A stretch of DNA of 64,000 nucleotides from Chara braunii (GCA_003427395.1 BFEA01000007.1:4471248-4535247); one strand, 5' to 3'; shown: positions 4,432 through 36,237, counted from the first letter of the stretch. The notes: generated by a model not told the origin, from the letters alone. Program-made: numbers and translations.

Positions 4432-4503
<72 letters not shown>
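4432..4503 (+). repeat. (GA)n microsatellite in LTR (counterpart ~33806-33862)
   Basis: Visible dinucleotide run. Confidence 0.95.
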
Positions 4504-4507
<4 letters not shown>

Positions 4508-6303: not shown

Positions 6304-6311
6304 ACATGCAT

Positions 6312-7745: not shown

Positions 7746-8465
7746 AGTTTGATCTTGACAAAGTGAAGATTGAACTAGTGAAAGCACATGTACATGGGTG
7801 AAAGAACAACCAAGTGTGAAACGGAACACTACCACATACATGAACTTGACAAAGTGAAGGTTAAACTAGTGAAAGCACATGCACGTGAGGGGAAGAGTCA
7901 TCAAGCGTGAAACGGAACACTACAACACACATCATCTTGATAAGGCGAAGGTTCAACTAGTGAAAGCACATGCACATGAATGAAAAAGCAACAAAGTGTG
8001 AATCAGAACACTACCACATGCTTGAACTTGACAAAACGAAGGTTGAACTAGTGAAAGCACACGCACATGAACGAAAAAGCAACCAAGTGTGAAACGGAAT
8101 ACTACCACATGCTTGAACTTGACAATATAAAGGTTGAACTATTGAAAGCACACGAACATGAGCGGAAAAGCAACCGAGTGTGAAACGGAACACTACAACA
8201 CACATGAACTTGACAAAGTGAAGATTAAACTAGTGAAAGTACATGCACATGAGTGGAAGGGCAACCAAGTGTGAAACGGAACACTCCAGCACACATGAAC
8301 TTGACAAGGTGAAGGTTGAACTAGTGAAGGCACATGCACATGAGTGGAAGAGCAACCAAGTGTGAAAGGAAACACTACAACACACATGAGCTTGACAAAA
8401 TGAAGGTTGAACTAGTGAAAGCACATGCACATGAGTGGAAGAGTCACCAAGTGTGAAACGGAACA
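7746..8465 (+). repeat. ~91-bp tandem array (also 4793-5328, 34146-34280)
   Basis: AAGTGTGAAACGGAACACTAC...GAACTAGTGAAAGCACATG recurs at ~91 bp. Confidence 0.9.
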
Positions 8466-10405
8466 CGACTTAACTACTATGTGATTGAAAGCATGGGCTA
8501 GACTAGATCAAAACCCAAGATTGGAGCATGACAAGCAATCAAGAATCAATTGGGACATCACGTACTAGTATGTGAATGAATAGTATGAACTAGACTAGAT
8601 CAAAGCACAAGATTGAAGCATGAGATGACCTAAGGAAGAATCGAGACATCACTAATTACTATATGAGTGAAAAACACGAGTTAGACTAGATCAAAACACA
8701 AGTTTGAAGCACGAGATCATCCAAGGAAGAAGCGGAACATCACCTACTGTCATGTGAGTGAAAAACATGAGTTAGACTCAGATCAAATCACAAGATTGAA
8801 GCATTAGATCAACCAAGGAAGAATCGGGACATCACCTACTACTATGTGGAGGAAAAGCATGAGCTAGACTAGAGAAAAACACAAGATTGAAGCATGAGAT
8901 AATCCAAGGAAGAAGCGGAACATCACCTACTATCATGTGAGTGAAAAACATGAGTTAGACTAGATCAAAACACAAGATTGAAGCATGAGATCAACCAAGG
9001 AAGAATCAGGGCATCACCTACTACCATGTGAGTGAAAAACATGAGCTAGACTAGATCAAAACACAAGTTTGAAGCATGAGACCAACCACGGAAAAATCGA
9101 GATATCACCATGTACAATATGAATGAAAAACATAAGTTAGACTAAATCAAAACACAAGTTTGAAGCTTGAGATTAACCAAAGGAAGAATCGGGACATCAC
9201 CTACTATTATATTAAAGAAAAGCATGAGCTAGACTAGATCAAAACACAAGTTTGAAGCATGAGATCAACCAAGGAAGAATGTGAACATCACCAATTACTA
9301 TATGAGTGAAAAGCATGAGCTACACTAGATCAAAACATAAGTTTGAAGCATGAGATCAACCAAGGAAAAATTTGAACATCACCAACTATCATGTGAGTGA
9401 AAAGCATGAGCTAGACCAGATCAAAACACAAGTTTGAGGCATGAGATCAACCAAGGAAGAATCAGAACATCACCAATTACTATATGAGTGGAAAGCATGT
9501 GCTAGACTCGATTAAAACACAAGTTTGAAGCATGAGATCAACCAAGGAAGAATCGGAACATCACCAACTATTATGTGAGTGAAAAGCATGAGCTAGACCA
9601 GATCAAAACACAAGTTTGAAGCATGAGATCAACCAAGGAAGAATCGGGACATCACCTACTACCATGTGAGTGGAAAGCGTGAGCTAGACTAGAGAAAAAC
9701 ACAAGATTGAGGCATGAGATCATCCAAGGAAGAAGCGGAACATCTACTATCATGTGAGTGAAAAGCATGAGTTAGACTAGATCAAAACACAAGATTGAAG
9801 TATGAGATAAACCAAGGAAGAATCGAGACATCATATGTGAAGGAAAAACATGAACTATACTAGAGAAAAACACAAGATTAAAACATGAGATCATCCAAGG
9901 AAGAAGCAGAACATCACCTACTATCGTGTGAGTGAAAAACATGAGTAAGAATAGATCAAAACACAAGATTGAAGCGTGAGATCAACCAGGGAAGAATCGG
10001 GACATCACCTACTACTATGTGAGTGAAAAACATGAGCTAGACTAGAGAAAAATACAAAATTGAAGGATGAGATCATCCAAGGAAGAAGCGGAACATCATC
10101 TACTATCATGTGAGTGAAAAGCATAACTTAGACTAGATCAAAACACAAGATTGAAGCGTGAGATCAACCAAGGAAGAATCGGGACATCACCTACTACTCT
10201 GTGAAGGAAAAGCATGAGCTAGACTAGAGAAAAACGCAAGATTGAAGCATGAGATTATCCAAGGAAAAAGTGGAACATCACCTACTATCATGTTAGTGAA
10301 AAGCATGAGTTAGACTAGATCAAAACACAAGATTGAAGCATGAGATCATCCAAGGAAGAATCGGAACATCACCTACGACTATGTGAGTGAAAAAGCATGA
10401 GCTCG
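8466..10405 (+). repeat. ~88-90-bp tandem array (~22 monomers)
   Basis: TAGACTAGATCAAAACACAAGATTGAAGCATGAGATCAACCAAGGAAGAATCGG recurs regularly. Confidence 0.92.
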
Positions 10406-10419
10406 GCTAGGGTCTCTAG

Positions 10420-10471
10420 GAAGGAGAAGAGGAAGAATAAGAAGAAGAAGATAAAGAAGAAGGAGAAGAAA

Positions 10472-10503
<32 letters not shown>

Positions 10504-15844: not shown

Positions 15845-16410
15845 GGTTTTTCTCAACCCGGCTTAGTCTATTTCCATGTACACTCCTTACGGACACCTTG
15901 CCAGACTTTTTCCCAGACTTAGCTCGGTCATTTCCTCATACATTTTTCACGGACATTTTGCCATACTTTTCTCAGGCCTAGCTCAGTCGTTTCTACATAC
16001 ATTTCTCCCGGGCATCTTGCCAGATTTTTTTCAGGCCTAGCTTAGTCATTTTCACAAACATTTCTCACGGGCATCTTGCCAGACTTTTCTCAGGCCTAGC
16101 TTAGTCATTTCCACAACCATCTCTCACGAGCATCTTGCCAGACTTTTCTCAGGCTTAGCTTAGTCATTTCCACAAACATTTCTCACGGATATCTTGCCAG
16201 ACTTTTCTCAGATCTAGCTTAGTCATTTAAAAATACATTTCTCACGGACATCTTGCCAGACTTTTCTCAGACCTAACTTAATCATTTCCAAATACATTTC
16301 TCATGGGCATCTTGCCAGACTTTTTTTTTAGGCCTAGCTTAGTCGTCTCCATATTCATTTCTCACGAGCATCTTGCCAAGCTTTTCTCATGCCTAGCTTA
16401 GTCATTTCCG
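15845..16410 (+). repeat. ~59-60-bp tandem repeat (~9 copies)
   Basis: TTTTCTCAGGCCTAGCTTAGTCATTTCC...GGGCATCTTGCCAGAC recurs. Confidence 0.9.
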
Positions 16411-16481: not shown

Positions 16482-18467
16482 AATCACGATGTCCCCATCG
16501 CGCAACCGGTTCTCGCTTGGAGGTATGCAGACCTTGCCTGCCAACTAAGTAGACGGATGTCGGCTCATCAACCCCAAAAAGGAAGGGTGAACAGTCCTCC
16601 CCCTGCTGATAACTCACCCCATCCTCTACTCTAGTCCGGCGACCACTTCTTTGGAGATGGGCATCATCATTGAGGTGCCTTCTCGCATCTGTAAGGTAGG
16701 TCCAGTCCATGTCTCCCAGAACCTCATCATACCAAACGTGGCTCCCTCACGAATCGTTCGTCCCGAGTTGTAAGTTTTGTGGATTCGGCCTCTTCCTTCT
16801 CAAGAGAGTTGGGACTCTCTATTAGTTTGCGAGTGCAGTTACGAGGACCTCGCGGTTAGTCATCGGAACGGTTGTAATGCTCCGGCAGGGCGGTGTCAAT
16901 GCCCTATGGTGGTGGCGGACTCCACCCGGTACCTCGCCCTGACCTCCCCTGCGGACAGTGCTGCTTGACTTAGTGCGAGCAGCCTAAGGTCCATCCCAAA
17001 CGGGCAGGTTGCCCCTCAACGACGTGGCGTGTGGTTAGAGAGGGTCGTAAGGACTAGAAGAGCAACTTTCGGTCCATATCAGCGCCTTAGATTTTTTTGG
17101 AACTCAACGCGAGGCGCAATTTGAACCTTTCGGCTAGAGCTCATTGTTGGAGCTGGTTTTGGACGTCGAGTATTGTATTGATACCTTGGTCCTTTAACTT
17201 TGTGCCTTACTTACGAGGGACAGGTCGCGCTTGGACATTTCCCTACAGGGTAGAGGCCCTGGGGTCGTGGTGCATGCATCACTATCCCCCTCATGCTGAG
17301 GCCTGAGACTATAATAAAAGCAAAACCAATTCCAATGCCGTTTCCATATCTTTTCCAAGTTGCCTAGGGTCCCCCAGTTATGCAAATGCAATATCCAATT
17401 CTCAGGCAAATGCTCAATCCAATGCTCTTTCCAACTTTTTCTCAAGGCTGATTCTCATGGCTGAACCGACAACCTTTTTTCAAGAAGACCACTTCTTGTG
17501 GCCGCTCTGGCGGCCGCTTCTCAATAGCCACCTTTCATGACCGACCCATCGACTCATGTCCATCTCTTACTTCTCAATAGCCGGATTAGGGCCATTCCTT
17601 TCCATTATCAAGTCGAACAACTTGGTTAGGGTCATTCCTTTCCATTCTTAAATGCAGGCGCCTAGGGGGTGAGCTTTTGAGGACACGGATCCGATCTTTT
17701 ACTAGGGGGGTTAGGAGGCGGCTATCTCTTAAGTTTTTTCGTGTTGTTTCATCATTTTTCTTAACACATCTTTGCTAGTTCTCACGATTTCATGCATACA
17801 CCCAACTTAGCATCTAGCACTCAAGCGGAGGCTTCCATCCCCCGACAGTACTAGCTCGCTCGGTCGTTCAACCATAGATCCAGGCGGGGGTCCTTCTGTC
17901 CGCTTCACTCTTTACTTTCTCTCACAACTTTTGATTTTTGCGATATGACCTTGACTTAGGTTGAACTCCTAGGGGAGGACATCCTCGTGCCCATAGGTTC
18001 CCTAACCTCTCTGATATTGGACTGACTCTCGATGCTCGTACGCGTAGCCATACGATAAAAAAAAAAAGACTTATAGTCTTTTGTTACCAGTACAACTTGT
18101 CTCGTCACAAAACTCCCTGTCCACCCATCTTAACTAATCTCATGTCTCCTGCCAAAACTCAATTTGAAAGTGGCTCAGAAAAAAAAAGCGCTCGGCGCAC
18201 CCATCCCAACTAGTCTCATGTCCATCTGTCCTTAGCAAAATTCAAGTCCAAAGTGGCCCGTACAAAAAGTTGCTCAGCCTGCCCATCCCAACTAGTCTCA
18301 AGTCCAAGTCTCTTGGTAAAATTCAAATTACAAGCGGCTCATACAAACAGTTGCTCAACATACTGCCTCTCCCTCCTACTTGTGCTAGGTCTCGATCCCC
18401 TGTCCCCTGCAAGGATATCATTCACTTGGGGTTAGGATACTAGCCCTTTTGTCGCGGCCCCCTTGCA

Positions 18468-19352
18468 CTAATCCCTGCTACAAGGGCTGGTCCTTTGTCG
18501 TTTAACCCCCTTTTCATCATTGCTTCTGGGGGATGCTTCGACGCCTAGGCCATAAGTCCGGATTTCGTTCAATTTCCTCATGATCAGCCATAGCTCTTCC
18601 TCGCTGAAAAAGTCTAGTGGTGTGAATGCTTTCCCTGCTGCCATCAACTTTCTAGCCTTGATGATCCATTCATGTTTGGTCACGCTGGCCCACTGCTCGA
18701 ACCAGTGGTTGGGTGTCAGCCCGAACTCATCCTCCCATCTGGAGGGTCCGTTCTTTGGACTGCCTGTCGATGATTGTCCTTCATTCGTAGGCTTTGAGAT
18801 CTCGTCCGCCTCATCCCCACTGCTGATTACAATGACCTCTTGTGCCTCATCCTCGCTCCCATCCTCATCCCTTGGTACTGGACTGAACTCACCCGCAGAG
18901 TTTTCCGGATTAAAGTTATACGGGATATCCATCCTTCTTTCGGGTTCGTCCCCAAAACCCGTATCCCCTCTTTCACAACTGGCATGCTTGCTTCTTTCCC
19001 AATCACGATGCACGCTTTCTCTTCCCGCGTCCCTTCTTTCACGACTGACCGGTTCGATCTGCCTTTCTTCACCCCCTCCCATACCAACGTCACACATACT
19101 TTCTTCCCTTCTTGCCTGTGGCTCTTGCTCCCCCGTCTCCTCCTCGGACAAGGGCTGCAACTTCTCACCTTCCTTAAGAGGCGAGGGTTTGCTAGCCAAC
19201 AACTTTCTCTTTCTTCTTCCCATTGTTCGTCTCCGCTGCGACCCAATGAATAATACCGGTTTTTGCCTGTCTCGTGGCCTCTCGACTCTCTGCCGCTCAT
19301 CTTCCAAGGCGATGTTAGCGTGGCTGACATCATTCTCGTTATTGAATTCCAT
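18468..19352 (-). CDS. Intact 294-aa accessory ORF in env position (NLS-like RRKRK, SIM-like EVIVISSGDE, Trp-rich C-terminal domain)
   Basis: Uninterrupted ORF from MEFNNEND, same strand as pol, preceded by a pyrimidine tract and CAG|G acceptor at 19376. Confidence 0.65.
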   Translation of the reverse strand: MEFNNENDVSHANIALEDERQRVERPRDRQKPVLFIGSQRRRTMGRRKRKLLASKPSPLKEGEKLQPLSEEETGEQEPQARREESMCDVGMGGGEERQIEPVSRERRDAGRESVHRDWERSKHASCERGDTGFGDEPERRMDIPYNFNPENSAGEFSPVPRDEDGSEDEAQEVIVISSGDEADEISKPTNEGQSSTGSPKNGPSRWEDEFGLTPNHWFEQWASVTKHEWIIKARKLMAAGKAFTPLDFFSEEELWLIMRKLNEIRTYGLGVEASPRSNDEKGVKRQRTSPCSRD

Positions 19353-19905
19353 CTTATTTTGTGTTTTCCCTGTGCCTGTCATGAAAAGGGAAACTGAAGC
19401 CCCAGTCCATATCCCCAAGCAGAACCCTCGCCCAAGCAATCGCAAAACCCCAAGTCCCATTCCCTTATGATACCGGAATTGGCCAAATTTTCAAGGGTGC
19501 GCCCCCTTGCCCAGTCTCTGGTCGTGCATCTCCATATGACGAGTCCCTCTATGCCCCATTCGAATCCCATGCGCCTTTTGAAAGGTCATGATATGTCGTT
19601 CCAGGCAGCCACCCCGATACCCTTCATCCCTTACGAAACTATGGTACAATAACCCAGGTTTTCATCCCCGTATCACCCTCCCCCAAAAAACTATGGTACA
19701 ATGCCCCAATCGCATTACCTAAACTCATGCAGTCCGTCCCCATAAGCACAGTCAAAACCCCTCCACACAAAACAAAACACATTGTAGGTAAGATTTCTTC
19801 GGCGCCTCAGTCGACCTGTTCCCTGTTTTCCTTGTCCTGAGTCTCTTGCAACCATTGCTCCACTGGGTTTCGGCTTAGGAATCTGATCAACAGTTGTCCT
19901 GAAAA

Positions 19906-21081
19906 TTACCCTTTTACCCTAGTACCATCCAAATCCTCAAACTCGAAACTGTTCATCCCCAGCCTCTTGGCGACCCGGTAGAGCCCCTTGAATCTTCTCC
20001 CCAGTTGTCCTGACCAGGTACTTTCTAATGCAGAATTTCTGACTAGGACCATTTCCCCCACTTGCAGTGGTTCTTTTCTTATGTTCCGCAACTGGTCCCA
20101 TCTTGCTTTGTCCTTCATTCTGCTATCCAGAACGCAGCTCACCACTTCGTCTGTGGCCTCCTCATTTTGGATAATCTGTTAGCACCTGACCTTAATTAAC
20201 TGTTCCGTCGTCAAGCGCGGGTCATCATTCAGTTTATTCCAAGTCGGTACTAGAGCTTCTATTGGGAAATCGATTTCCCTCTCATACCATAATTCAGCCG
20301 GAATACATCATGTGGTCCATTTTGGAGTCATGTTGTCTTCGAACACTGCTTGCTTAAGGTACTTAGGCCAGTTCCCAAGGTCGTCAGCTGCTAACTTTGC
20401 GATCGTGTTCTTAAGCGTCCGATGCCCTCTCTCCACGGGCACGTTAGCTTCCGGGTGGTACGACTCAATTAACTTGATGGGCACCCCAAGTCTTTTGCAT
20501 GTACTCAACACGTCCTGGTTCACGAATTTTATTACATTATCGGCTATAAATCCTCTGATAAACGGGTGCCTTAGGTAGAAGTCCTCAATCCATTCAGCTA
20601 CTGCCAGTCCCGTTTTCTTCTTAAGAGCTATTGCCTCCACAAATCCACTAAGATTATCCCTGGCGTCAAGTATGTACCTGTATCCTTTTGTATATACTAG
20701 TATAATCACGAGATCGAGGTGGACGAGATGTCCAGGTCCTAGCACTCGCGTTGGTCTCAAAGGCTCGAAGACTTGAGTCGTACGTCGCTCTTGACAGATC
20801 AAGCAGGTTTGGCAATACGTGGCGACCATACTCCCCATTCCAGGCCAGAAGTAAAGTGACACTATTTTTGCGAGGGTCCCTTTTGAGGAGCCCTGTCCTC
20901 CTGCCAACCCGTCATGCATCGCCAGAATTATGTTTACTTGCCTCGATCGTCCACATACCACCCTTCTAGGCATTAGGCCTTTCTCTCTCCTAAACAGGTG
21001 TCCGTTTTTTAGTACATACTTATCGGCTTCCTCTCTGGTCTTGAGGCTAACCTCCTGGGAATCCTTGTTTCCTACTAGCAA
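19906..21081 (-). pseudogene. pol: Integrase (HHCC remnant, DDE core, GPY/F-like C-terminus), disrupted
   Basis: HDGLAGGQG...CQTCLICQ, LVHLDL, FIADN, ERGHRTLK, FKGLYRV; stops and frameshifts; no chromodomain seen. Confidence 0.92.
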
Positions 21082-21256
21082 CAGTCCAATTGCTCTGAAG
21101 ATCCCATCGTATGAATGAATAAGAAAGAACGCCTTTTGATCCTGACAATTTTCTTGTCCATCTTGTGCTTGATTTACTAGGTATTGCTGCCGCTTTTGTT
21201 CTCAAGATTCAACTAAGCTCATAACCGACCCCGTCCTCCTTCTATTGCTAGTGTCA

Positions 21257-21939
21257 TTAGTTCTTCCTGAGGCCCCACAGTGCCACCCCACGAATCCTTC
21301 CTTCCTTTCGATCGGACCTTATAAGTGTTCCTTCCCTAAGTTTTGCCACCACTGTCGGAGATCCTTTCTCCAACGCCCTGATCAAAAACTCGTCGGAGGT
21401 GCAGGCAGGCTCTATCATTTCGTTATCAACCACCAGGTTCCCTCCCTCATAGTCGAGAAATGCATCGATAGGTTTCGCATCCTCTACTCCTTCTGGCATA
21501 ATGCATACTCTGCTCAAGCCATCGGTCATGTTCCTAAGTTCTGCTATGCGCTCGATCTTGTAATCAAACTGCCAAATGAGCCTCACCCATCTCCCCACGG
21601 TAGGGTCTATAGGTTTGTAATTCTTGCAAGCCCCAGCGATGTTTGTTCGATCTATCCTTTGGATGAACCTCCTTCCAAAGGGGTAGGCTTGGAAGGTCGT
21701 GAGGCAGTGAAGGACATCCAACACTTCCTTCTTGAACTGGGAGTAACGACGCTCAGCTGAGTCAGCGTTCTACTCTCGAATCTGATTGACCGCTCCCTTC
21801 CATCTTCCCCTCTTTGGATCAGGACTCCTCCCACAGTCAGTGGTCCCCCATCGGTCTCAAGTACAAACGGGCGACCTACCTCGTTGTTGAAACACGGAGC
21901 GGCCAGGGTGACTTGTTTTGACGTCAGGATGTCTTTCAA
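21257..21939 (-). pseudogene. pol: Ty3-type RNase H, frameshifted
   Basis: PFVLETDGGP-VGGVLIQ, RFESRTL, GRRF..RID, RWV..IWQFDYKIERI, N.TDGLSR. Confidence 0.9.
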
Positions 21940-23072
21940 GGTCTGAACGGCGACTTCTCATTCCTCCGTCCAATCGAGCGAACCCTCTTCGCGAATCATG
22001 GTCCGGATGGGCTCTGCTATCTTAGTGAATCCTTTGATGAAGATCCTCCAGAACCTCACGACCCCTAGGAAGACCCTTACCTCCGTTGTAGTCCGCAAGG
22101 GCGTCGACCATTGAGAAATTTTATCAATCTTCGTTGGGTCGGGCTTTCTTCCATACGACCCGTAACGGCATCCTATGAATCTATGATAGTTACTTTTGGA
22201 ACTGCCAGGATGATCTTGGGGCCACTAGCAGTGATGTTATATTCCAGAAACCTTCCGAAAAGTTCTTTAATATCCTGCTGGTGGTCTCACACAAATTTAC
22301 ATACCCCTGGTTGAATTTTCGTCTCATCCTTGTCTCGCGAACCCTTGATCGGATTGTCATCAATGTATGGCTCGCACTTTGCGGGGAACATATCTCCCGC
22401 AACTGCGAGCATCCTTCTTTGTGCTTTTGCCACGACATTGGTGAAGCCCATATGAGTCACTTGCATTTGCAATTGCCCTACCGAGGTATGCATAGTCGTG
22501 TAAGGTCTATCCCGGGCGCCCAGCGGGAGCTGATCATACCCAGAATAGAGGTCTATCAATGAATAAATGCTTCGTCTGGCGTGAGATTCTGCCAGCAGGT
22601 CTGCTTGAGGCAGTGATCCCGCATCTCGGATGATGACAACATTCAATTTCTGCAGATCCTGGATCCACCTAAGCGACTTGTTAGGTTTCCGGAATACAAA
22701 CCACTTATTTGCATATGGTGAGGCGGTGGACTCTGCAACTAAGGAGTCCATCTTTGCTCCAAGGAGTTTTATTACTTCCCCTGCCACCCCAAAGTCGTAG
22801 GCAGGCCCTTTGTCGTTCCAGCATTCGTGCTCGACTGTGTGGATCTTGACCGGGGGTATCAGCTTCGCATCTAGTCGTCCCTTTTGATGGTCGTTAAAAA
22901 CAAAAGCTAGATGGAATTCATGGCATGCTTCCTTGATCAGGCATGCCTCCCGTTCTGTCAAAAATCCTTCAACCCCTATCTTCATGGTCTTTGCTACCTC
23001 GTCTGGTATTCGATGCCCTTCTGTTGCCATTTTTTCCCTAATCACCCGGAGCACTTCCTCCTCCTTTTCCAT
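21940..23072 (-). pseudogene. pol: Gypsy reverse transcriptase, disrupted
   Basis: SPYANKWFVFRKPNKSLRWIQDLQKLN, YSLIDLYSGYDQ, MGFTN, PYIDD. Confidence 0.95.
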
Positions 23073-23125
23073 GGCTTCTTCCTTTGTTGTTTTTAGCAGG
23101 ACCGAGACAGGCTTGGCTTTCTTTC

Positions 23126-24368
23126 CTACTGGCTTGTACTTGCGAATGCTTCCTTCCAGGATCTTTCTCCTAAAAAATGAACGGCTGGAATTGCCCGTGG
23201 TGTCTCGACCATTCGAGGCTGGATACTGATCAATTTTCCATTTAGGCAGTAACCCCTTTGGACTTCTCCCTCAAACTTGGCGAGTGTGGTCGGGTTCACA
23301 CCCATTTTGTGGTACCTGATGACTTTGATGAGGTGCAGTAGGTCCGGAACTTCCAGTGTTATCCGGGCCTCCTCATCTCGGGCCTCCTTCGGTCTACGCA
23401 ACTTGGCTCCCAATTCGACCTCTGTCTCTTTCTCTACTACCATTACTCCTAGGGCATCGTCCTCATGTCTGCGCTTTTTCTGTGGTAGCCCCATTTTGAT
23501 CCACTCCTTTTTGTTGAATGCTTCTTCGATCATAATTTCTACCCTTTTATCTCATCCCTTTCATCCGCGCGAAGGCCCCCTTTCTTGCGCTCTCTTCAAA
23601 TGATGGTGACCATGTTGCTAATTTTCCCTTTGGCGTGTCCCCGCCTGTTCCAATGAGACGGAGCAGCTCCCCACGTCCTGTCACCGGGTCTTCTATGTCT
23701 ACCATGTATGTCCCATCATGCAGGTGCATTCCTATCATCTTCACATTTGCACACCAAGGTCTCTCAAGGATTACGTCGTGATCCATCTCGTCCATCACGG
23801 TCATCCGCTGGAAGGACCAAATTGACTCCCAGACCCCAGCTTTGACTGCCTACTTAGTAACATACCCAGAGAAGGGAATTTCCCCGCCTGCCCCTCGGAT
23901 GCTTCCAGTTGTTTCCTTATTTATTGGGCATCTCGTAGCCTTTGCAAAATCTTTCCTGATGAGCGTAATCTCAGCCCCGCCGTCTACCAATGTGTCAGTA
24001 TGGTGACGTCCGACCTGGACTTTCAACTTGCCTACAGGTAGTGCATGAAAACTAAGCTTCGTTCCGGGTGGCGCTCTCATAACTTCGCCGCCTTCCTGGT
24101 CGGGCAGGCTTAGTTGGATGTCTGCGAAAACCTTTTCCAGGTCTTCTAGGTCTCTGGGAATCCTTTGAAGGTTGGCGGCCTCTTGCGGTGCCTCTTCCTC
24201 CTTTTCCTCCCCCTGCGGTTGCGGTCCTTCCTCTACTTCTATTCTTTGTCTTGTCAGCAACTGCCTGAGGCCTTTTAGGAGCCTAGGGCTTGCCTGCAAC
24301 ATGGTTTGAAACGAGACCGACACCATGGTTTCTAGCAGTTTGTTAAGGGTGTCGTCGATCTCGAGCAT
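23126..24368 (-). pseudogene. pol: Retropepsin-like aspartic protease and spacer, disrupted
   Basis: LVDGGAEITLI active-site motif, IRGAGG flap, DVILERPW (ILG.PW-like). Confidence 0.88.
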
Positions 24369-24601
24369 AGCCAGAATAGGGATCTGGTACCGAAACTTCT
24401 TTTTCGTCGAGGTTGCTTTGTCTATCGGGGCTTCATCTCTAGGCTTACCGTAAACCCTTTCCTATTTCTGCGCCTCAGTTTCCTGCGGTGCTCCCGGACC
24501 ATCCCCTACATCTTCCATGACTGCGTCCTTACGTTTACCCGGTCTCGGTCGTCGCTTTCTAAGATAAAGTTGACCTGCGGTCCGCGTCCTCGTGCCTGTT
24601 C

Positions 24602-26361
24602 CTAGACAAGATCCGCCACGGTCTCGGCTTCTACCGTGGTGACGTCAAGATTGTTGAGTGCTATTACGACCCGGCGCATTCCTTCCGGGGAGTTCCAATT
24701 TACCTTCTCTCCTTGGGGACCTATGATTTTCCCTCGCAGCGTCCTAGAGCACCTTTTGTGCATGATATCGTGGTTGAGCTTTGGACATGCGCGCACATAG
24801 TGTCCAACCAGCGTGCAATATTTGCACTGCTTATTGGCTGAATCTCTTCTATTGATCCCTCGGCTAACTATTCCTGTCGGAGCCACAACTTCTTGTGGTG
24901 GTAAGGGGGGTCGCACCGCCTGGTTTTGCATCACCTGGGCTTGCATCACCATTAGTGCATTTTCTACCCTCTCGATTTTCCCATCTACCTCATGGACACG
25001 CTCATGCAGGCTTTCAATCCCTTTTTTTACCTTGTCAACCATCTTGCCGGTTAGGTCTATGACCTCTCCCTCCTTCAGCATGGCCAGCGAGTCGGTTACA
25101 ACCATCTTCTCCGCGATATCTGTTATGGTACTGAAGCCAACGTCCCTCGTGTTCAAAAACTTCGTGGTCTGTTGGTAGGCGGACATGATCTTATCCTTAT
25201 CAAATTCGGTGAATTGCCTGAGGAAGTACTTGCTCATTATCTGGTCGGTTACCCCCGGGATGCGCAACGCCATGAGAGTCAATTCCCTCAGGAAATCGTT
25301 ATATGTTGCAAAGTTCTTTCTTTGCACCGCGGCCAGCTCTGTCTCCGTAGCCATTTTCTAGGCCGCCAGATATTTCCGCATCATTATGTCCCTGGCCTCC
25401 TTCCAGGATCCGCTGGTTGCGACAATAAACATTATATCCCTCCCTAGGTTCAATGACACATGTTGCCCTAAGTGTTCCATCTTCTCTTCCTCACTCCACT
25501 TTAGAAGTGCTGCCAAGTTCTCATAGTCTATCAAGAATTTTGTGCGATTGGCCCCATCGAATGTCAGCTTCTTCTTGGCATCCGCCAAGTACCCCTGATT
25601 TTTATTTAGTGCACACGTGAGGAAGAACACCATTTTCTTAAGTCCCCCATCGGTCCCTCTTATTCCACCAGCGTTGTCGGAGCCTTGTTCTTCCTTACCA
25701 GCCCCCGCCCCTTCTCCGGGCTTTGTTGTTCCTTCTTGGTCGAACCATCCTAGCACCCTCTATCTTAAGCTCCAGAGCCCCTCGCACCCCCTTGCGATTA
25801 TCGATGACACCGCTGGCCGGCTTGCCCCGCTATCTATGGCCGGCGGGTAGGTAGTCTTGGAGATTTTGTTTTCTCCTTTCTTTTCTTGGTTGGCGCCTCC
25901 CTATGCTCCCCAGCCGTATCCTTCTTCCTTTTTATGACATCATCTCGGCTTCCCCGCCCCTGGTTTGTTTCTTCATTCGGCCTTTCTCCGGCGAAGTCCC
26001 CCTCTCCTTCGTTCATCATTTCCTCCAAGAGTTTTGCTTTATATTTCGTCGTTCTCCTTTCTATCTCAGCTAGTTTCTTCTGGGTGTCCGTTAGTCTCAC
26101 CTTCTTTGACAGTGCGCCCTCAGATGCCCGCCGCGCCGGATTCCCTTTATTCTTATCTCCTCTAGTTTCCTGAGTTCCTCGTTTACTCCGTCCGACTTTT
26201 TTGGAACTTTCCCCGGTTGTCACGTCCTTTCTTCCCTCTGTAGTCCCTTCTGGATTTGCCGACTCTCGGTCCCTTACGGATCCCTCGTTCTGTTCTACGT
26301 CTTTTTCCATGTCCTGACTTCCTTTGCGCCGCAGGTTCCCAGCCTCTTCCTCTGTCGCCAT
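24602..26361 (-). pseudogene. gag: Gag with CCHC zinc knuckle, split by stops/frameshifts
   Basis: CKYCTLVGHYVRAC (C-x2-C-x4-H-x4-C), FDGAN.TKFL.DYE capsid-like motif, charged N-terminal segment from ATG 26361. Confidence 0.88.
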
Positions 26362-26408
26362 CCTTTTCTAATCCTGCACATAGAATTTTTCTTTTCGAAA
26401 ATGGCCAG

Positions 26409-26525
26409 TTGCTTTCTATGGGAGCCGTATTCGCTCTATTTGCAGGATTCTACTATTGGATAGGCAAATCTCTTGACTTCAATATCCAGAAACCTTAGGT
26501 CAAATTCATTTTTGGATTACTTTTC
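26409..26525 (+). pseudogene. cox1: Mitochondrial cox1 fragment (NUMT), ~117 bp
   Basis: Translates LSMGAVFALFAGFYYWIGK then, after a 1-nt frameshift, LQYPETLGQIHFWITF, matching plant COX1; Trp is TGG. Confidence 0.92.
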
Positions 26526-26942
26526 ACAGCTCTCCAGATTTCCAGACCCTAAGGTTCTCCCTATCTTTGCCATTTCGATATTTTTTTTGTTTTATATTGG
26601 TCGTGGCAGGCTTATCCGTCTCTTCTCACTTTGCGGGGTACCGCTTGTCTTTTCCTGTCGGAAAACCTGCTGCCGAGGTTTGGTGTTTTGTCACTACAGC
26701 GCCTCGGTTCTAAGGTGGTGTGTCCATGGTGGGTGGACCCTCCTTTCGAAAATGACTTTTTGCCTTCCCAACCTTTGGATACCCCTAGCGCCCTTGGTGG
26801 TAATTGCCATCCTAGTCCCTTCCTGGCACACCCTTAGATAGAGTGGGGTCCAGCCACTATTCTCCGCAGGTCGCTATTCTCGCTTTCGTTTTTATCATTT
26901 TCTTGCTAGACTTTACCTCTGCCACCCTCCCCGATATTTTTC

Positions 26943-27726
26943 TCACACCGGTTCCTCAGGCCGGTCCTGTTCGTTAGGTTCTACGAACAGGTTAGCCACC
27001 CCCGCAAGGTAATTTTCCCCCATTCCTATTTCTCTGATAATTATTGACTCGTATTCTTCAAAAGCCAGGCGTGGCGCCCCGAATATCAGGATCTCGATGA
27101 GTTCTAGTAATTCACGGGTCTGGTTTTCCCAAAACGGCCCGTGTCTTACCGACACGTCATAAAACATTCCCGTTGTTTGTGGTTGGAAATGGTGGATCCA
27201 GGTTAGGGTTGAGTACACCAAGTCCCTCGCCCTCGAGAGGCTGCCGAATACCAGATCGATCATGAAGCGGGGTACTTGACACCGCAACCCTGCCATCGGG
27301 ACTCTGAATTCTCGCCATCCTCCTACTTCCCCCCGAGTTCTTAGTCCCACATTTCTTCTCCCCCGGACTTCCTAACCTATCCGATTTAGTGCCCTAGCCG
27401 CCCTCCGAAAGATTCGCAGCAGCCCATGCCCTAGTGCCACCTCGGTACCTAGCATGTGCCATCCAATTTCCGGTAGATACACGGTCCCCGTCACCCTCAG
27501 GTCGGTGCATAAATCGTCTCCTGGTCCCCTGTTGAATCTCATACCGCTCCACATATATTCTACCATCATGAAGGTGGTCCCGCCCTAAGGTCACAACTCT
27601 CCATTCCGTTTCAAGTCCTCAGACTTCATAGCTTGTCGGGAGCGGTACCTCGCATTCGTTACTGCCTTCCGTGGGTGGTCGAGGATGCGTGGGTCGTCGC
27701 GACGTTCGGGTGCGTCTCATCGCCAT
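26943..27726 (-). pseudogene. Accessory paralogue D (unknown family), disrupted
   Basis: MAMRR...EVPLPT; GTVYLPEIGWH; GGWREFRVP; YDVSVRHGPFWEN; EIGMGENYL. Confidence 0.75.
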
Positions 27727-27868
27727 CGCCAGTAGGTGGGTTCCTGCATAGTTCAGACAGAAAGCGAGTTCCCCTTATTCCATCCGCTCCCTCGGTCATT
27801 GCTAGCTATCCTCCTGCTTTCTTACCCCATCCTTTTTGTCACCCTTGGTTTTCTTTTCCTTTCTCTTA

Positions 27869-28641
27869 TCAGCCTACCTCTTCCTCCGGTGACTCGAACA
27901 AATGATAGACATCGTCTAGGTAGGTCATTCCGCGATTTACTTCGTGCCTAATGATTTCCCACATGGTCTCATCACTTATTCGCAAAATCCCTTGTCTAGT
28001 AGTCACGGCCGCCCGTAATATACACAGGACTTCATATCCCGGTTCATCCTCAAAGGGTCCCATTTTTAGGAAGGTCCGATAGTACTCTCGATATACTGAT
28101 ATTTCTTCAAAGCTTAGCCTAGTCAATGCGGCTACCGCCTTCTCAACTCGTTTCGCGCCTCCCATTCGTCTTAGTAGGAAGGTGGCAGGGTCATCCGAAC
28201 GATCTCGGTTGGCAGGTCAAAGGTTCCTGCCATGACAATTCCTACTTCCGCCGTTACATTGTCCCGTTCCAGATCCGTGAACTCAAACCCTTCTCGCCAG
28301 GTTATTTGCCATGCTCCTTTGAACATTCACAAGGGGTCACCTCCGGAGGCCAAGGTGATCCCAAAGGTCTACCATCCTTCCTCTGACAAGTATAGCGATC
28401 CCGCGGCATGCACACGTTCTGGGAGATCCAAATTCACGCCCCCGAATGCCCCTTTCGCACACCATTCCATTTCCACTACTAAGTATACTGTGTCTTCCAC
28501 CAACTCTACCCCTACCCAATCCATTATCGGGTTGCTTACCCCACTTTTTGCTGGCAGACTCATCTCAAACCTGCCGTCCAATGTTCTTGGCGGCAGAATC
28601 CCGCGAGGTCTGTCCTCCCAAAACGTCATTCGCCGAGCCAT
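27869..28641 (-). pseudogene. Accessory paralogue C (unknown family), disrupted
   Basis: MARR...FEMSLP; GSLYLSEEGW; YYRTFLKMGPFEDE; EVNRGMTYL. Confidence 0.75.
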
Positions 28642-28842
28642 CCTCTGATGTCGCTCTTCCTTGCTCTCCTTTGTTCGACTGCTGCATCTACCAAGATTTC
28701 GTATTTTCCTAGTTTAGTCCTTCTGCGTTTCTTACCTATCGTACACTAGTTCTTGCCGCTATTCCCGCCCTGTACACATACAGATCCTTTCCCTCTTGCT
28801 GGTCGTTGACACCTCCTCTTGTCAGCTCGCTGGGCGTTAGGC

Positions 28843-29594
28843 TCATACCCATAGTACCTCGAACAATAGGAACACGTCACCTATATAGGAAGGGGTCGCT
28901 GCCACCTCTCGACGGAGTATTGCATCCCCGGTCTTGTCATCCACTTCGAGCCGGTCTTCCTTGAAAATTTTCAGGATCTCGACTACTTCCTTTGCCCTAT
29001 CTCCAGGGAAGGGTCCTTCCTCTAGCGAAATCCGGTAGTAAGCATCAGCCAATCATGCGAATCCTAAGTCCACCTCATCCAGAGACTTTGCCACCGCGCG
29101 GATATGTTCAAACCCGCCGAACCAATCTGCCACGAAGCGCAGCAACCAAGCTTGGACTAACTGGTACGGCAGCCTAAGCTCCTTCCATCCACCTATCACG
29201 ACCCTACTGTTCACAGCATCCCAACCTTTGTTGGCAAAGTCATAGCCCATGCCCTGAGTCCGGCGCTCGGCCTCCCTTAAGATCCACATCGGGTTTTGCC
29301 CGGATGCTAATGCTACACAGAACAGATGCCAACCCTTCTCCGACAGGTACACCGTTCCGAGGGCTTCCACATTCCCTTCGTCTATGTCATCCCATCCTTC
29401 CTCCTCCCTGACCGGATTCCATACCCTCTCTACCCATAGAATGACAATGCAGGCGCAATCTCCTCCTCTACCCAGTCGCAAACCGTCCCTTGCCATTTGT
29501 TTCTTGTCGGCAAGGTCATTTCTACCCCCCCTTCAAGTCGTCTTGGCGCCCATCCTCTAAACATTCGCTCCCTTACGCTCTGTCCTCTAGCCAT
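28843..29594 (-). pseudogene. Accessory paralogue B (unknown family), disrupted
   Basis: MARG...VEMTLPT; GTVYLSEKGWH; GGWKELRLP; YYRISLEEGPFPGD; EVAATPSYI. Confidence 0.75.
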
Positions 29595-29621
29595 GCCTGT
29601 CCCCTGTACAACGCCAACCAT

Positions 29622-30504
29622 TCACGCCGCCCATGAGCCCATCCCTCGGAAGTCCCAATCCTTAATCGCCTCATCCTCTTCTTCCTCGGTGAGATAGTCT
29701 TCTTCCTCATACCACAGGTCCTTTAGCCCCTCTAGAAATGTTTCCCCGATTGCCACATTCTTGTAGACTATTTTCCAGTGGACGGTGCTTAGGACAAACA
29801 CGTCGTCCGTGCAGAGACAGTTTAGTGTCTCGGCTAGCTCCCTCGCCCAGTTCTCTTCGAAGGGTCCCATCTCGACCGATAGACGGAAGAAGTCATGTCG
29901 GGCACCTTGGTACAGCCCGAGGTTCCTCATGGACTGGCATATCCGCACCAGCCTACTCCGGGTCCCGAAGACAGCATCCACCAAAAAGGGGGGCAACACA
30001 CATCTCATCGTTTTGACGGGACGCCTCACGCTCCCCCTATCCCCGAGTTCCACTCACACGTCTACCCTTTCCATTTCCATTTCTGCCTGTTGACATGCGG
30101 CTCATACAACCTCTCTTTCCTCCTTCCTAAGCCATTCGTCCGGCATAGTTCCTAGTACCAAGTCTATGACTATAGCGTTCTCCCCTTTTTGCGACAAGTA
30201 GAGTCAATTAGTAGACCCACCCTCGGGCTTCCACCGTCCCTCGGAACTCCAAATCCATTAGGCTTGGCGACAACCTTGTCAGACTGACCTTATTCCATAT
30301 CGTTTCTATCCAAAGGAATGCATCCTCCTCGTCCAGCATTACGGTTTGATAGGCTGGCTCTAGATCTGTCCACGTTCCTTCTTTCGAGAGAACGACCGAT
30401 ACCCCATCCTTTACATCTACCGGCATTTTCGGACTGCTGGTATAGATCGGGGATGACAAGTTGACAACCACATCTTGTTTGCAGCACCCGACCCCTGCTT
30501 CCAT
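29622..30504 (-). pseudogene. Accessory paralogue A (unknown family), disrupted
   Basis: LWIETIWN, VEARGWVY; PPFLVDAVFG; FFRLSVEMGPFEENWAREL; NVAIGETFL. Confidence 0.72.
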
Positions 30505-32149
30505 AAAAGAGGCACCGAACGGCCCCTCCCGTTAGGTCAACCCTCGTCCTAGACGAGAATTATTTCAGACCCCTCATCCGGGTCTTCCTACTCTACTTCC
30601 CCATTTTTAAGTACCACCCCTCCATAGTACACTCAGTCGGCCAGCACTATCCAACATTCCTTTCTTTTGGTTCTGTTCCGACTGACCTCTATCCTGCCCC
30701 CTTTCCATCATCTCTCACTCGTGTGGACTGACGTGGGGAGGTGGGAATAGACTAGAATTACAGCCTGCACAACAGTTCGGCCTCAATTAACCTTTACAGA
30801 GGGGGAATACGAAGGAAAAAAATTCAGGCAATCTCACATACGGGTCGGTCATCTCCTCACCGGCCTTCTCCAATATGGTCTCTCCGCTGGTACTTTCGGC
30901 AGAGTTTTATCCCATACCTCAAGCGCAGCTCAACCGTCGCGAGCGAGGTACCAAGGCTCCGGCACAGGGTGTTACCCCTCTCCATTCACCCAAAATACCC
31001 CATCCCGTCTTGCCGCTCTTGCACACCTCGTTGGTACCGGGAATCACCCCGCGCACCCCGTTAGGAGCAAAAGTCAGTCGTCTGGGCATTCACTTTCATC
31101 GGTCCGATAAGAATCAGCCTTTCCCATGCCTTTCCGCGAGAAGCTACTAATCGTCTTCGAGGCTTCCTCCTTGCCTCGCATGCAATGGTCCTCCCCCGCC
31201 AGTCAACAGGCTAAGCCCCGTGTGAGGAAACGTTTCGCACCCCGCCTGGGTAAGGGCATCGATCTATGCTCGGACCGCCCGGGTGAGAATGCTACTAATC
31301 AACCGGCGTGACAGACTCCCGTCCGACAGCTCGGTGGCCTGACCTCCACACACGAAACCCGACGAACTTCAAAGAGAGCGACGTTTCTCACTCCCACACC
31401 AGCTGGTGCAGACCCATCCTTTCCTTCCGAAAGGCAGGACACTCAGTTCCCCACAGGCAGATCACAAGTCCCAAGCGGGACACACATAGAACAAGTGTCT
31501 TTCCCTTAGTGCTCCCAACGCTTTCTACCCATGTCTCACAGTTTTCTCTCAGGACTGTGCGTGCCGCTCTCCCCTAATTTCGATACATATTGGCTGGTTC
31601 CTTTTCGTGAGCATCTTCAAGGGTGAGCTAGTTTTCTTTGGAGTCTAGCAACTCCCTTCATTCCCTTTTTCTTCTTTCGTGTGTCTTTTTATAGGGTAAG
31701 ATTGTTCCTTCTTGATGACCCTTGTGTTCATGTAGGTTCCTTCAAGCATTTCAAGTGTATAGTGCATGAGTCCGCTGGGCTCAAAGAAGAAGAGAGGAGG
31801 GTACCCACTCGGTCGGATCACTCCACCGCGGGATTTTTATTGGACCCCGGCCGAAGCCGAAGGACCAACTGCCTGCCAGGTAACCTGCGACTCGCCCAAG
31901 GCTTCCCGGACTGGCGAACACCAGCACCGAACGAAGGAGGGCTAGAGCCATTCCACAAGGAGATGGTTAATCAAGTGCTCAACATGCATGATATACCTCC
32001 AGGTCTGGCCATGCCATGCGCCCAGCCACTCTCAAGTCTGATTCTTTCAAGGGGTAGAGCAAGCACAAGTCCAATTTCCTCATCCTTAGTTGTGTACACG
32101 GCCAAGCGTAGGACGCCCCCTTCGGAATCGCATGGGTCAGTTTAACCCT

Positions 32150-32168
32150 ATACCCGACATCTCCACCC
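32150..32168 (-). promoter_or_regulatory. Primer-binding site complementary to tRNA-Ala 3' end
   Basis: Plus strand ATACCCGACATCTCCACCC versus recalled plant tRNA-Ala 3' end ATACCCCGCATCTCCACCA; 4 nt inside the LTR edge. Confidence 0.8.
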
Positions 32169-32172
32169 TTTT

Positions 32173-33801
32173 TGTAGGGCCAAACCCCGGTAGACTTTCG
32201 AGCCTTGGTCAACCCCACTGCGGGTCCCAGTTGGCTCGGTCCACCCACGCTCATGCTCAGGGAGCGGGCCGTTCGCCGCAGGGTCACCTCCACCTAGTGT
32301 TTTGAGATGGATGGGGGCGGGTCATCGCGCGAGAGGGCTTTGACATTGGGGATGTAGTTCAACCCTCACGCCGGGTGGTAGTCTCGCTGGTGATTTTCGC
32401 AAAAGCAAATTTTTTATTCTTGATTATGTTTGCAGGCAATTGCTCCTTCTAATACTCAGGCAGTCCAAGAAGGTTTATTCAAAATTTCTCTTCTTTATGT
32501 GCGTAGGCTAAGCGTCATCCTTAGGCCATGCACCATTTTCCTAAACACAACAGTCCTACGACATCATCCGGGTGCGGTACCGCCGTCTTTCCCCTAGCCC
32601 CCCGCCTATTTATTTTTTTTGTTTGACACATGCATCCCGTCCATAGTTCCGTTGCCTGCCCTTCAACGGAAAAATTTCCTAAAATTAAATAATCATTCTA
32701 TCGTAAAATTACCATCTGAATTTTAAAATTTCATTTCATCTTAAAAAATATCATTCAAATTTTAAAATTTTTCATCTGACTTGCAAACTTTCATTCCAAA
32801 AATAGGGTATCCCTTCTTATTTGGACTGCATTTTAGAGATGGAATGAAAGTCTGGATGAGTTCATGAAATATTTTAATTGGGCTGTCATTCTAAGTAAGG
32901 ATTTACAATCATTAATAGGTTAATCCAATCCAAATTAGAAGATATTTGTTGTAGTGGAATGAAAATTTAATTAAAATATTTCATAAACTCGTCCAGGCTT
33001 TCATTCCATCTTGAACAAATAGATGTAGTTGGAATGGAAAGCTCATATTTAGACGGGAATGTATCAGATAAAACTGAAAATTTTAGAGTTGGACAAGCAT
33101 TGGAATGATAATTTATTAATATGAAGGATTTTTTTTATGGAATGTTTTTTCAACTTTCATTTCTTGTGGGAATTTTTCTGTTGTTACTCTTTCCGGGCTT
33201 TCACGTTGCATGCAAAAAATCACTCCACTCTTTCATCATGCAAGGCCACGCCCCTCCTTCGATCCTTTGCCCAAAGCATCTTACACCAAGACCTGTCGCG
33301 GTAGAGTTTACACTGGGGCCTAAGGCCCCTCCACTCCTTCACCTCTCCCCCCTTTCGCCTGCGTGTCCGTGACCCAGTCCCGCTCAAGTCATCCCAAAGA
33401 GCGAAGGCAAAGACCGGTACAATCCTCTATTGGGGTCAACATATAGCCCTTCCCGCATGCCTACTTTTCCTTCGATGCTTTATCTTGCCCCATTCCTTTT
33501 GTCAAACACAACCAAGCTCTCTTCTTTTCATAGTCATGCAGTCCGGGTTCTGGTTGAGTCAACTGACCTTGCTTCAAGTTATACTTTTTCCCGGACTTTG
33601 CCTCCTCTCAGTCTTTCAAATGTCCTTCCTCTTTCCTTCTCTACGGCACAAGGGACCGACAACCCTTCCCTTGCCCTCTTTCTCCACCAAGTGACGACTG
33701 TTTTCTTTCACCGTTCGTTCCCTGTCACTGTAACAAGGTGAGTGGTGTAGGGTTATGTTTACGCCAAAGGGTGTAGGAGAGAGAGAGATAGCGAGATGAG
33801 G

Positions 33802-33873
<72 letters not shown>

Positions 33874-34934
33874 GAGAGAGATAGTAGGTGAGAGGGAGGA
33901 GAGAGGATGAGAGCGAGGAAGAGATAGGAAGAGGGAGAGAGAAAAAAAAAAGAACGAAGGAGAGGGAGAAAGGCAACTAGTCCTAATCAAATCATTCGTC
34001 CGTAGTCGCAGCCAAATGTCGGTCACCCATCCCACAGTTGTAGCAGCCAAATGTCGGTCACCCATCCCTCAGTTGTAGCAGCCAAATGCCGGTCAGCCAT
34101 CCCACAGTTGTAGCAGCCAAATGTCGGTCACCCATCCCACAGTTGAAGAATAAATAAGTGTGAAACGGAACACTACCACTCACATGAACGTGACAAAGTG
34201 AAGGTCGAACTAGTGAAAGCACATGCTTATGGGTGGAAGAACAACTAAGTGCGGAACGGAATACTACCACACACATGAACTTGGCAAGTGAGAGTGACAG
34301 TAGTAAAAGCTCAATACATGAGAAGTTGAACAGCCAAATGAGAACCGGAGCACTACCACGAGTACGAACTTGACAAGGTGAGAATAAGCACATACACATG
34401 AGAAGTTGAACAACCAAATGAGAACCGGAATACTACCAAGTCATGAACTTGACAAGATGAGAGAAAGCACATACACATAAGAAGTTGAACAGCCAAATGA
34501 GAACCGGAACACTACTAAGAGTATGGATTTGACAAGGTGAGGGTGAAAGCACATACACATGAGAAGTTGAACAGCCAAGGGAGAACCGGAACACTACTAA
34601 GTCATGAACTTGACAAGATGAGGGAAAACACATACATATGAGAAGTTGAATAGCCAAGTGAGAACCGGAATACTACTAAGTCATGAAGTTGACAAAATGA
34701 GAGAAAGCACATACATATGAGAAGTTGAACAGCCAAGTGAGGACCGGAACACTACCAAGAGTTTGAACTTGACAAAGTGAGAGTAAGCACATACACATGA
34801 GAAGTTGAACAACCAAAAGAGAACCGGATTACTACTAAGTCATGAACTTGACAAGATGAGAGAAAACACATATACATGAGAAGTTGAACAGCCAGGTGAG
34901 AACCGGAACACTCCTAAGTCATGAAGTTGACAAG
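32173..34934 (-). repeat. 5' LTR remnant (U5 side), truncated at 34934
   Basis: Roughly 90% similar by eye to 3313-6965, with the same repeat arrays. Confidence 0.88.
32664..33183. mobile_element. AT-rich MITE with ~16-bp TIR and 2-bp TSD (TT), possibly CACTA/CMC-like
   Basis: Absent from the 3' LTR at ~3802; ends CAACGGAAAAATTTCC ... GGGAATTTTTCTGTTG. Confidence 0.8.
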
Positions 34935-36237
34935 CACTTCAGGTCATTTCAGAGGTTCAAGTTGCCCCACCCGAAACTCTTGAAATGACATGATGTGGCA
35001 TACAACAACATTGGACAAAAAGAAAACAAGTGACCCCCCCCAATAAAATTTAACATCGAAACCAAACCTGGAACTCTTGAAATGACTTGAAGTGTTTTCA
35101 TGCCATTTCAACGACTTGAGACCTTTGCTAACAAACTTCAGAATCTTCAATTGTGAATTTTCAGTTGGTCATGAACCACTTATGTTTGTGATCCCACGAT
35201 CAATGTTTTATGCATATTTATTGAGGAAAGAAAAAAATTTTAATTCCTCTTCTCTCTTGTGCAAAGGGAGTTTCTTATCAATTTCTTCCCCCCTTGCGTA
35301 TGCCCAATCCCAATGAGGGGCGGGTTCGGCATAAGCCGATAACATTTTCAGTATTTTTCTTTTGTTGAAGTTTGAGCAAGAATCTCAATGGCATAAAAAT
35401 TGTTTCGATTGCGGATGTGTGGAGGGCGTCATGATCACTGATGATTGAATTCACATTTTTTTTTCATAAATTAAACAGTTATTTTTTTCACTATAATTCT
35501 TGTTCAGAAATTTCACACTTATTTTTTTCACAATTGGATCATTTGTCATATGATGGTTGGGAGGCACTTGACCATTATTTATGGGTCTTTCTCCGATTTC
35601 TCTCTTACTATAAAATTGTAGTAAACCTGTCGGACGTGTTGCAAAAATGTTATACACTTTTGGGCATGTGATGTCACATGAAGAGTCGTTGAAAGTGGAA
35701 CCCTGGACCCGGTTTCCGACAGGTGACGCTTACCCACCATCTCGGATAGCAGCCCCGACCCAGCAGTCTGATTGGGAAAAGAAAAGGAAGAAGTTGACTA
35801 TCTCAGCTGGTGAGCAATAAGTGTGCCCTAGGTGGTCATGGGGATCCATGACCTCTTGAATGCTTTACTTGCATGCCTTACCAACTGGGTTTTCCTATTT
35901 TTATAAGTCAAATCTTGACAGAATTTTTTTTCAAGTTTTTTCTATTATTAGTATTACGGGGAACTCCAACCACATCCATGTTCATGCCTCCAACGAAAGG
36001 CACATGCAGAGTTGCTGAGATACTTGCTTCAGCTGGTGGTCGACACTCGTCAGATGTCAGCAAATAGCATCACAAAACCATGCCATCTATTATACAAATG
36101 TGTCTCCCTTCCAGTCCCCTTCCCTTACGAACATCAACAGTCTATTATGAATGTCAATTGGGGGGTACCAACGGGTTACATTTCTATTGCAGACAACAAG
36201 TGTATCCAGGAAGGTATACTACTGTCTTCCCCCGAAC
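34935..36237 (+). repeat. Partial third copy of the downstream duplicated segment
   Basis: Matches ~46346-47655 and ~58660-59706. Confidence 0.85.

Follow-up and report, generated by a model that had tools for sequence, protein, structure and literature searches.

Accessory units and candidate splice sites in a relic copy of a giant Ty3/Gypsy retrotransposon from Chara braunii

Complex retroviruses (lentiviruses and deltaretroviruses) use one major splice donor in the leader together with alternative acceptors placed before accessory genes, some of which are duplicated. Epsilonretroviruses have an open reading frame (ORF) between the long terminal repeat (LTR) and gag, the Ogre retrotransposon combines an ORF1 with a spliced intron in pol, and in polycistronic translation of the caulimovirus type, packed cistrons on one pregenomic RNA have abutting stop and start codons. 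Additional ORFs of plant elements occur upstream or downstream of gag-pol, as stated in excerpts of PMC7264820; the same excerpts, citing Vicient et al. (2001), describe the barley Gypsy element Bagy-2, whose env-like extra ORF is expressed from a spliced subgenomic RNA. For Cer1 of Caenorhabditis elegans (Ty3/Gypsy), the abstract of PMC10309623 describes the CERV protein made from a spliced mRNA and a retrovirus-like handling of the unspliced genomic RNA. Here we describe a 64-kb stretch of Chara braunii DNA (GCA_003427395.1, BFEA01000007.1:4471248-4535247; hereafter the window), which carries on its minus strand a giant Ty3/Gypsy retrotransposon specific to Chara. This copy is dead and frameshifted, and it has accessory units both before gag and after pol.

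With Bagy-2, the Chara element shares an additional sense ORF in an LTR retrotransposon, which in Bagy-2 is reached by splicing of the LTR transcript. Bagy-2 has one such ORF after pol and one splice, whereas the Chara element has four paralogues before gag and one ORF after pol, none of them env-like, and its splicing is predicted. Cer1 is likewise a Gypsy element with an accessory gene, but this gene is single and experimentally shown, and it has no sequence relation to the Chara units. Ogre resembles the Chara element in the position of its extra ORF between the 5' LTR and gag; this ORF is single in Ogre, while Chara has a tandem array of four paralogues. Finally, retroviruses make gag-pol from unspliced RNA and keep their accessory genes mostly 3' of pol, whereas the Chara gag would need a spliced mRNA, and env is lacking. 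The literature searched described neither four paralogous accessory genes arrayed in tandem before gag nor such an element from Chara. The gene architecture appears to be new for Gypsy elements; extra ORFs and single splice events were already known.

A preliminary description of this locus proposed that each ORF has its own splice acceptor and that a common leader is alternatively spliced to six cistrons, as in complex retroviruses. This interpretation is partly supported and unproven. We infer splicing, the pairing of donors with acceptors and a role of the accessory proteins in the life cycle of the element. Our tentative preference, held at somewhat short of an even chance, is that the CAG/G sites found before start codons (here and below, the slash marks the putative splice position) and a GT in the leader function as true splice sites in those relatives of this copy that are intact. 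The LTR transcript of such relatives would be spliced from the conserved leader donor to acceptors just before the cistrons, these being the CAG/G sites that precede five of the six start codons by 10–24 nt, and splicing would place a given gene, gag-pol included, first on its mRNA. The stronger form of this scheme, in which one leader donor (30917) is alternatively spliced to all four accessory genes, gag-pol and the 3' gene, and only the unspliced RNA is the genome, seems unlikely to us.

The accessory array and its relation to gag-pol

On the minus strand, the internal region of the element runs from about 32.2 to 18.4 kb, and all features described below are on this strand unless stated otherwise. 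Direct LTRs, the order of protease (PR), reverse transcriptase (RT), RNase H and integrase (INT), and a CCHC gag are all present and assign the element to Ty3/Gypsy (Metaviridae). This copy is not autonomous, as its gag-pol consists of 12 stop-to-stop pieces; it is a relic, and the decay leaves its membership in the Ty3/Gypsy family unaffected.

Upstream of gag there are four tandem units, A to D, of about 230–300 codons each. Judging by how they align among themselves and with P0001, an intact protein of 226 amino acids, they are diverged paralogues derived from a single orphan gene; another intact example of a unit is the protein of CBR_g4576. None of the four is whole in this copy, owing to frameshifts and in-frame stops. 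Unit A (29622–30473), which has 13 A-type Chara proteins among its relatives, has a frame change just past the ATG at 30473, a stop at 30208–30210 and another frame change before 30053; it is to the ATG at 30473 that the start of the relatives corresponds, unlike the start chosen in the preliminary description. Unit B (28843–29594) is 60% identical to intact P0001 and has one frameshift near 29440 and an in-frame TGA at 29053–29055. Unit C (27869–28641), 74% and 62% identical to residues 1–252 of P0018, has two in-frame stops and one frameshift. In unit D (26943–27726) the frame shifts near 27585 and is interrupted by a TAG at 27372–27374. What had been listed as six ORFs is therefore a mixture: the 3' ORF is a long open frame, whereas A–D and gag-pol are fragments, namely four broken paralogues and 12 pieces. 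Nor do the six behave as independent cistrons, since four of them are paralogues and some of their sites may be shared by descent.

The relatives of the array come largely from Chara. Searching with a profile of the units yields 59 representative proteins (nine of the ten looked up come from Chara braunii), and a search with one A-type protein yields 14 matches, all from Chara braunii. Many of these relatives are long gene models with one to three units followed by gag and pol domains, and this order recurs in gene models on at least eight other Chara scaffolds, so that the array is a regular part of the element family. Both the units and the 3' ORF are in sense orientation and conserved among Chara copies, and in this respect they are additional ORFs.

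None of the unit pieces, nor the 3' ORF, matches a Pfam family at E = 0.01, and no homology to described additional or env-like ORFs was found. The unit is predicted to fold (predicted local distance difference test, pLDDT, 77); a fold search with its model gave a best Foldseek E of 0.018 with a template modelling (TM) score of 0.16 and a best VIA Z of 5.5, to generic helical bundles, while all protein atlas scores for the unit were 0.83 or below, that is, at chance level. Orphan units of this kind, matching no Pfam family or known fold, could be foreign to the Gypsy element, either as a nested insertion or as captured host genes, the more so as this copy did capture a fragment of cox1; in that case the signals of the array would carry no information on expression of the element. 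Such an origin is nevertheless highly improbable, given that the order of unit(s), gag and pol recurs on the other scaffolds, that base and strand skews run unbroken from 12 to 32 kb, and that no repeats flank the array inside the element; a nested foreign insertion was rejected on these grounds.

The captured mitochondrial cox1 fragment (about 110 nt, SMGAVFALFAGFYYW..., at 26412–26523 on the plus strand, found by a PDB sequence search) matches plant COX1 7jro_a with E = 5e-7; Pfam gave no match on this short piece. It is antisense to the element, in the spacer between D and gag, 38 nt upstream of the gag acceptor-like site. The 41–42 RNA reads here have loose ends on both sides and derive from cox1 mRNA, and the fragment is absent from a DNA contig that represents another copy.

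The gag region (24602–26361) consists of three pieces, 69–77% identical to P0007 and P0008. A zinc knuckle CX2CX4HX4C (CKYCTLVGHYVRAC) lies in the translated piece 24602–25357, and no Pfam gag family reached E = 0.01. The pol region (19906–24461) consists of nine pieces, whose Pfam matches follow the order PR (23850–24461), RVT_1 (22287–23270), RT_RNaseH (21257–21957) and Integrase_H2C2 with rve (20308–21201). Just upstream of the protease, at 24236–24419 (residues 15–76 of the piece 23850–24461), there is a weak match to Pfam DUF4100 (E = 7.9e-4, under the curated cut-off).

The 3' accessory ORF (18468–19460) is the sole long open frame in this copy. It has five relatives in Chara, with 37 invariant columns in the C-terminal half of the alignment, and its predicted structure is mostly disordered (pLDDT 42). 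The motif E-[VI]-I-x-I-S-S-G-D-E-x-D-E-I is invariant in all six relatives and lies at 18800–18850 (residues 218–231 of the 340-residue frame); it is reminiscent of a SUMO-interaction motif.

Donor-like and acceptor-like sites

The gag ATG (26361) lies 5,811 nt and 136 ATGs downstream of the LTR, so scanning from the cap cannot reach gag and some bypass is needed. The seven acceptor-like and four donor-like strings on which the preliminary description relied are all present on the minus strand at the positions it gave, and its AG–ATG distances are correct to within 1 nt.

The leader between the LTR end and unit A (30496–32172) is high-copy and well conserved. In the DNA run X1 its depth is about 5,600–6,000, compared with 15–900 over the genes; X1 depth suggests that the genome has some ten to a hundred copies of the family at 90% identity. 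The leader is 70–83% identical to L001, a second DNA copy of 2,358 nt, which covers the leader, A and B and is the sole locus obtained from a metagenome scan; viral contigs gave no match for the 3' ORF or unit A, and genome contigs gave none for P0018. The donor-like sequence TTGAG/GTATGG (30912–30920, GT at 30917–30916) stands in the best-conserved block of this alignment, with 35 of the 37 bases around the GT identical in L001, and is an exon end in P0026, P0075 and P0072 (three of the 13 A-type gene models). The GT of a second donor-like sequence, CCG/GTGAGG (30856–30863, GT at 30860), is also kept in L001 and is used by no gene model. Two further donor-like sequences are TAG/GTAAGA at 28735, between the two C acceptor-like sites, and GAG/GTAAAG at 26916, 27 nt past the stop of D.

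For unit A, the preliminary description proposed the acceptor TGTGCAG/G (GTTGTGCAG/G, 30765–30772), and the string is indeed present. An alternative is GAAGCAG/G (30495–30501), 21 nt before the unit A ATG of the relatives, where an exon of P0075 starts approximately; the CAG/G at 30495 fits unit A better than 30765. The acceptor-like site of unit B, TGTACAG/G (GTTGTACAG/G, 29604–29611), lies 10 nt before the ATG at 29594, and an exon of P0008 begins at the codon directly past it. In the form TGTRCAG/G it is kept in L001 (there TGTGCAG/G), although the flanking spacer is only 38–57% identical. L001 covers three acceptor-like sites, of which it keeps two, the CAGG at 30495 and the one before B, and lacks the third, the originally proposed A site at 30765.

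Unit C is preceded by two acceptor-like sites, GTGTACAG/G at 28770 and ATGCAG/C at 28682 (28682–28777). The D site, TATGCAG/G (CTATGCAG/G, 27744–27751), lies 17 nt before the ATG at 27726, has 65% pyrimidines upstream, within the nine best of 137 YAG/G sites, and coincides with the junction FE/GTANQQMAM of P0007 and P0013. The gag site, ATGTGCAG/G (26374–26381), lies 12 nt before the ATG at 26361. Eight gene models (P0007, P0018, P0028, P0029, P0033, P0041, P0048 and P0051) start an exon 2–4 codons ahead of the gag Met; six of these appear among 60 junction rows drawn from 63 proteins, and P0018 and P0029 were added by reading. In the DNA contig that lacks the cox1 fragment, T11CCTT stands directly before the gag TGTGCAG/G. 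The 3' ORF site, TTTCCCTTTTCATGACAG/G (19376–19395, ending in ATGACAG/G), lies 23 nt before the ATG at 19352 and has the top upstream pyrimidine content of the 137 YAG/G sites, but it is not used in any gene model. In B and in the 3' ORF, the first in-frame ATG (29621 and 19460, respectively) is upstream of the proposed AG. Overall, exon borders of the public Chara gene models (CBR_g50582, CBR_g48248, CBR_g13079 and others) coincide with the 30917 donor and with the B (P0008), D (P0007, P0013) and gag sites.

Placement statistics, RNA reads and competing interpretations

The placement of the sites relative to start codons is non-random, and as evidence of acceptor function it is suggestive and not compelling. 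T[GA]CAGG occurs eight times in 13.8 kb, and five of the eight stand before A, B, C, D and gag. With the A start of the preliminary description, four of the six ATGs have CAG/G within 30 nt upstream (P = 0.0066); with the A start at 30473, this holds for five of the six (P = 4.3e-4 against random places and 1.3e-4 against all 309 ATGs). Ranked by upstream pyrimidines among the 137 YAG/G sites, the 3' ORF site is first, the D site 4th–9th and 30495 10th–16th. The claim that each ORF has an acceptor of its own stands in part: the B, D, gag and 3' ORF sites are non-randomly placed, while 30765 is not conserved and the C sites lack outside support.

A number of observations weigh against splicing at these sites. 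The P values are uncorrected, and the hypothesis was drawn from the same sequence. Exact k-mers upstream of the ATGs are not common beyond chance, and in this copy B, C and gag, and in one comparison also A, are preceded by weak pyrimidine tracts. Common descent from one gene, which holds for B, C and D and probably for A, means that these units do not supply independent sites. At 30765 the local identity to L001 is 41% and the AG context is lost, and no CAG/G is found within 30 nt of the C ATG (28641). The gene models are themselves predictions that use several different donors, and a predictor must choose an AG near the start of an open frame. Finally, the RNA reads show no donor–acceptor joint in X5–X7 (partial runs of likely mostly antisense reads, mapped to a dead copy), and 77 reads of X6 run over 30869, with depth level across 30917 and 30765.

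The RNA data come from three oligo-dT RNA-seq runs with the same species label (X5, X6 and X7), mapped to 16500–33700; 6–13% of each run was examined, and depth over the genes was 1–27. At 90% likeness, 21, 1,462 and 11 reads were obtained from X5, X6 and X7, respectively, and at 80% likeness, counting RNA runs only, 16, 2,899 and 19. The split reads that alternative splicing should leave did not appear in these sparse and partial data: over 14 kb a single joint was listed, and this one, at 31885, is an insertion variant that DNA contigs carry as well. The power of this comparison is reduced in that RNA depth tracks DNA copy number and reads ending at the LTR border continue into many different flanks. 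Strand was calibrated on cox1 mRNA reads, in which plus-strand RNA has its first mates on the minus strand. On this basis, roughly three in four leader reads would be antisense to the element (first mates 30:11).

X6 contains about 100 times more element-family reads than X5 or X7 in a similar amount of sequence. Plain DNA contamination was not accepted as the source of the X6 signal, since the segment with the highest DNA depth (32572–33145, 110,856) has an RNA depth of only about 4.

Taken at face value, many of these observations would fit the absence of splicing, with the AG and GT strings arising by chance on a strand rich in purines and being passed on, in part, as the units were duplicated. 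The proteins could then be produced by termination–reinitiation, internal ribosome entry or internal promoters, or be supplied in trans. CAGG itself is not enriched: this purine-rich strand has 70 occurrences over 12.8 kb, and 200 dinucleotide shuffles gave 73.3 +/- 8.4. No k-mer is common to the upstream regions, the five spacers, when aligned, have only short motifs in common, and the absence of RNA joints, the flat coverage of the leader and the loss of 30765 in L001 point in the same direction.

The A–B border bears on this possibility as well. The stop of unit A abuts an ATG in the frame of unit B as TGAATG (29624–29619), as in coupled translation. This is a likeness to the caulimovirus type of expression; the difference is that only one of the five Chara borders abuts, and no transactivator homologue was found. 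The A–B spacer is 27 nt in this copy and the other spacers are 142–581 nt; in other copies, unit A ends nine codons earlier, directly after WDF.

Expression without splicing is a serious, if doubtful, possibility. What speaks against it, apart from the placement of CAG/G before five of the six starts (P about 4e-4), is the 30917 block as the best-conserved stretch of the leader, the survival of the B motif in a diverged spacer, the T11 tract before the gag site in another copy, and the use of the gag site by eight gene models.

The public gene models allow for yet another interpretation, in which splicing removes stop-containing introns between the units and before gag and produces leader–unit–gag-pol polyproteins, as these models are drawn. 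GTs do occur just before the stops of B (28857, 28848), C (27877) and D (26948), and also at 26916, 27 nt after the D stop; moreover, P0007, P0008, P0018 and P0029 fuse units to each other and to gag in frame, and in P0026, P0072 and P0075 the reading frame of the leader continues into unit A. However, the units keep their own ATG and stop elsewhere, with P0001 ending at the B stop, 10 of the 13 A-type models ending at WDF, and a TAA directly after WDF in L001. An intron would not fit into the 27-nt A–B spacer, the donors differ from model to model, and RNA joints were not seen. We consider polyproteins quite improbable, and continue to favour, tentatively, splicing from the leader to acceptors before individual cistrons.

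LTRs, neighbouring repeats and significance

The 5' LTR is present in part (32173–34934), as identified by a self-BLAST match to the 3' LTR, with the border taken from DNA contigs; another repeat cuts it at about 34931. The LTR pairs found by self-BLAST are 32173–32663/3313–3802, 33184–34283/3801–4930 and 34273–34934/6304–6965, with identity of 88–92%, that is, a pair divergence of about 10%. On the element strand the LTR terminates with ...CA at 32173, and DNA contigs of other copies break at 32173–32175, matching this end. The outer part of the 3' LTR, delimited by self-comparison, spans 3313–7761, and tandem repeats run on to about 10500. Self-comparison and sequence reading identified no inner LTR borders. 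Neither a clear primer-binding site nor a clear polypurine tract was seen on reading from 32172 downwards and at 17400–18500, and ARAGORN found no tRNA genes in the 64-kb window. A tblastn search of the window with eight Chara proteins revealed no further copies of element proteins outside 18–31.5 kb.

An AT-rich insertion of 521 bp (32664–33183) is present in the 5' LTR and missing from the 3' LTR. It has repeated TTCATTCC and GGAATGAA motifs and resembles a miniature inverted-repeat transposable element; its DNA depth is about 110,000, compared with 7–8 for single-copy contigs, and its RNA depth is only about 4. Tandem arrays with periods of about 10, 79–80 and 91 bp lie in or beside the 3' LTR (4426–10497), and another array (59 bp x 7) is found at 15849–16383. 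Near 17648 the DNA depth drops from about 2,800 to about 50, which may mark a border of the element or of the LTR.

Elsewhere in the window, two direct repeat copies of about 10–11 kb (42579–52985 and 53763–63073) are 90–97% identical to each other, and a related piece (34931–36236) adjoins the truncated 5' LTR at 34931. These repeats have no similarity to pol or the accessory units of the element.

Provided that splicing does take place at the conserved GT and AG sites, this element family would represent an independent origin of retrovirus-style multi-splice expression, in an algal lineage near land plants. It would also add five orphan proteins that probably act in the life cycle of the element itself. 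As the family is abundant in a published genome with RNA data, the question is directly testable.

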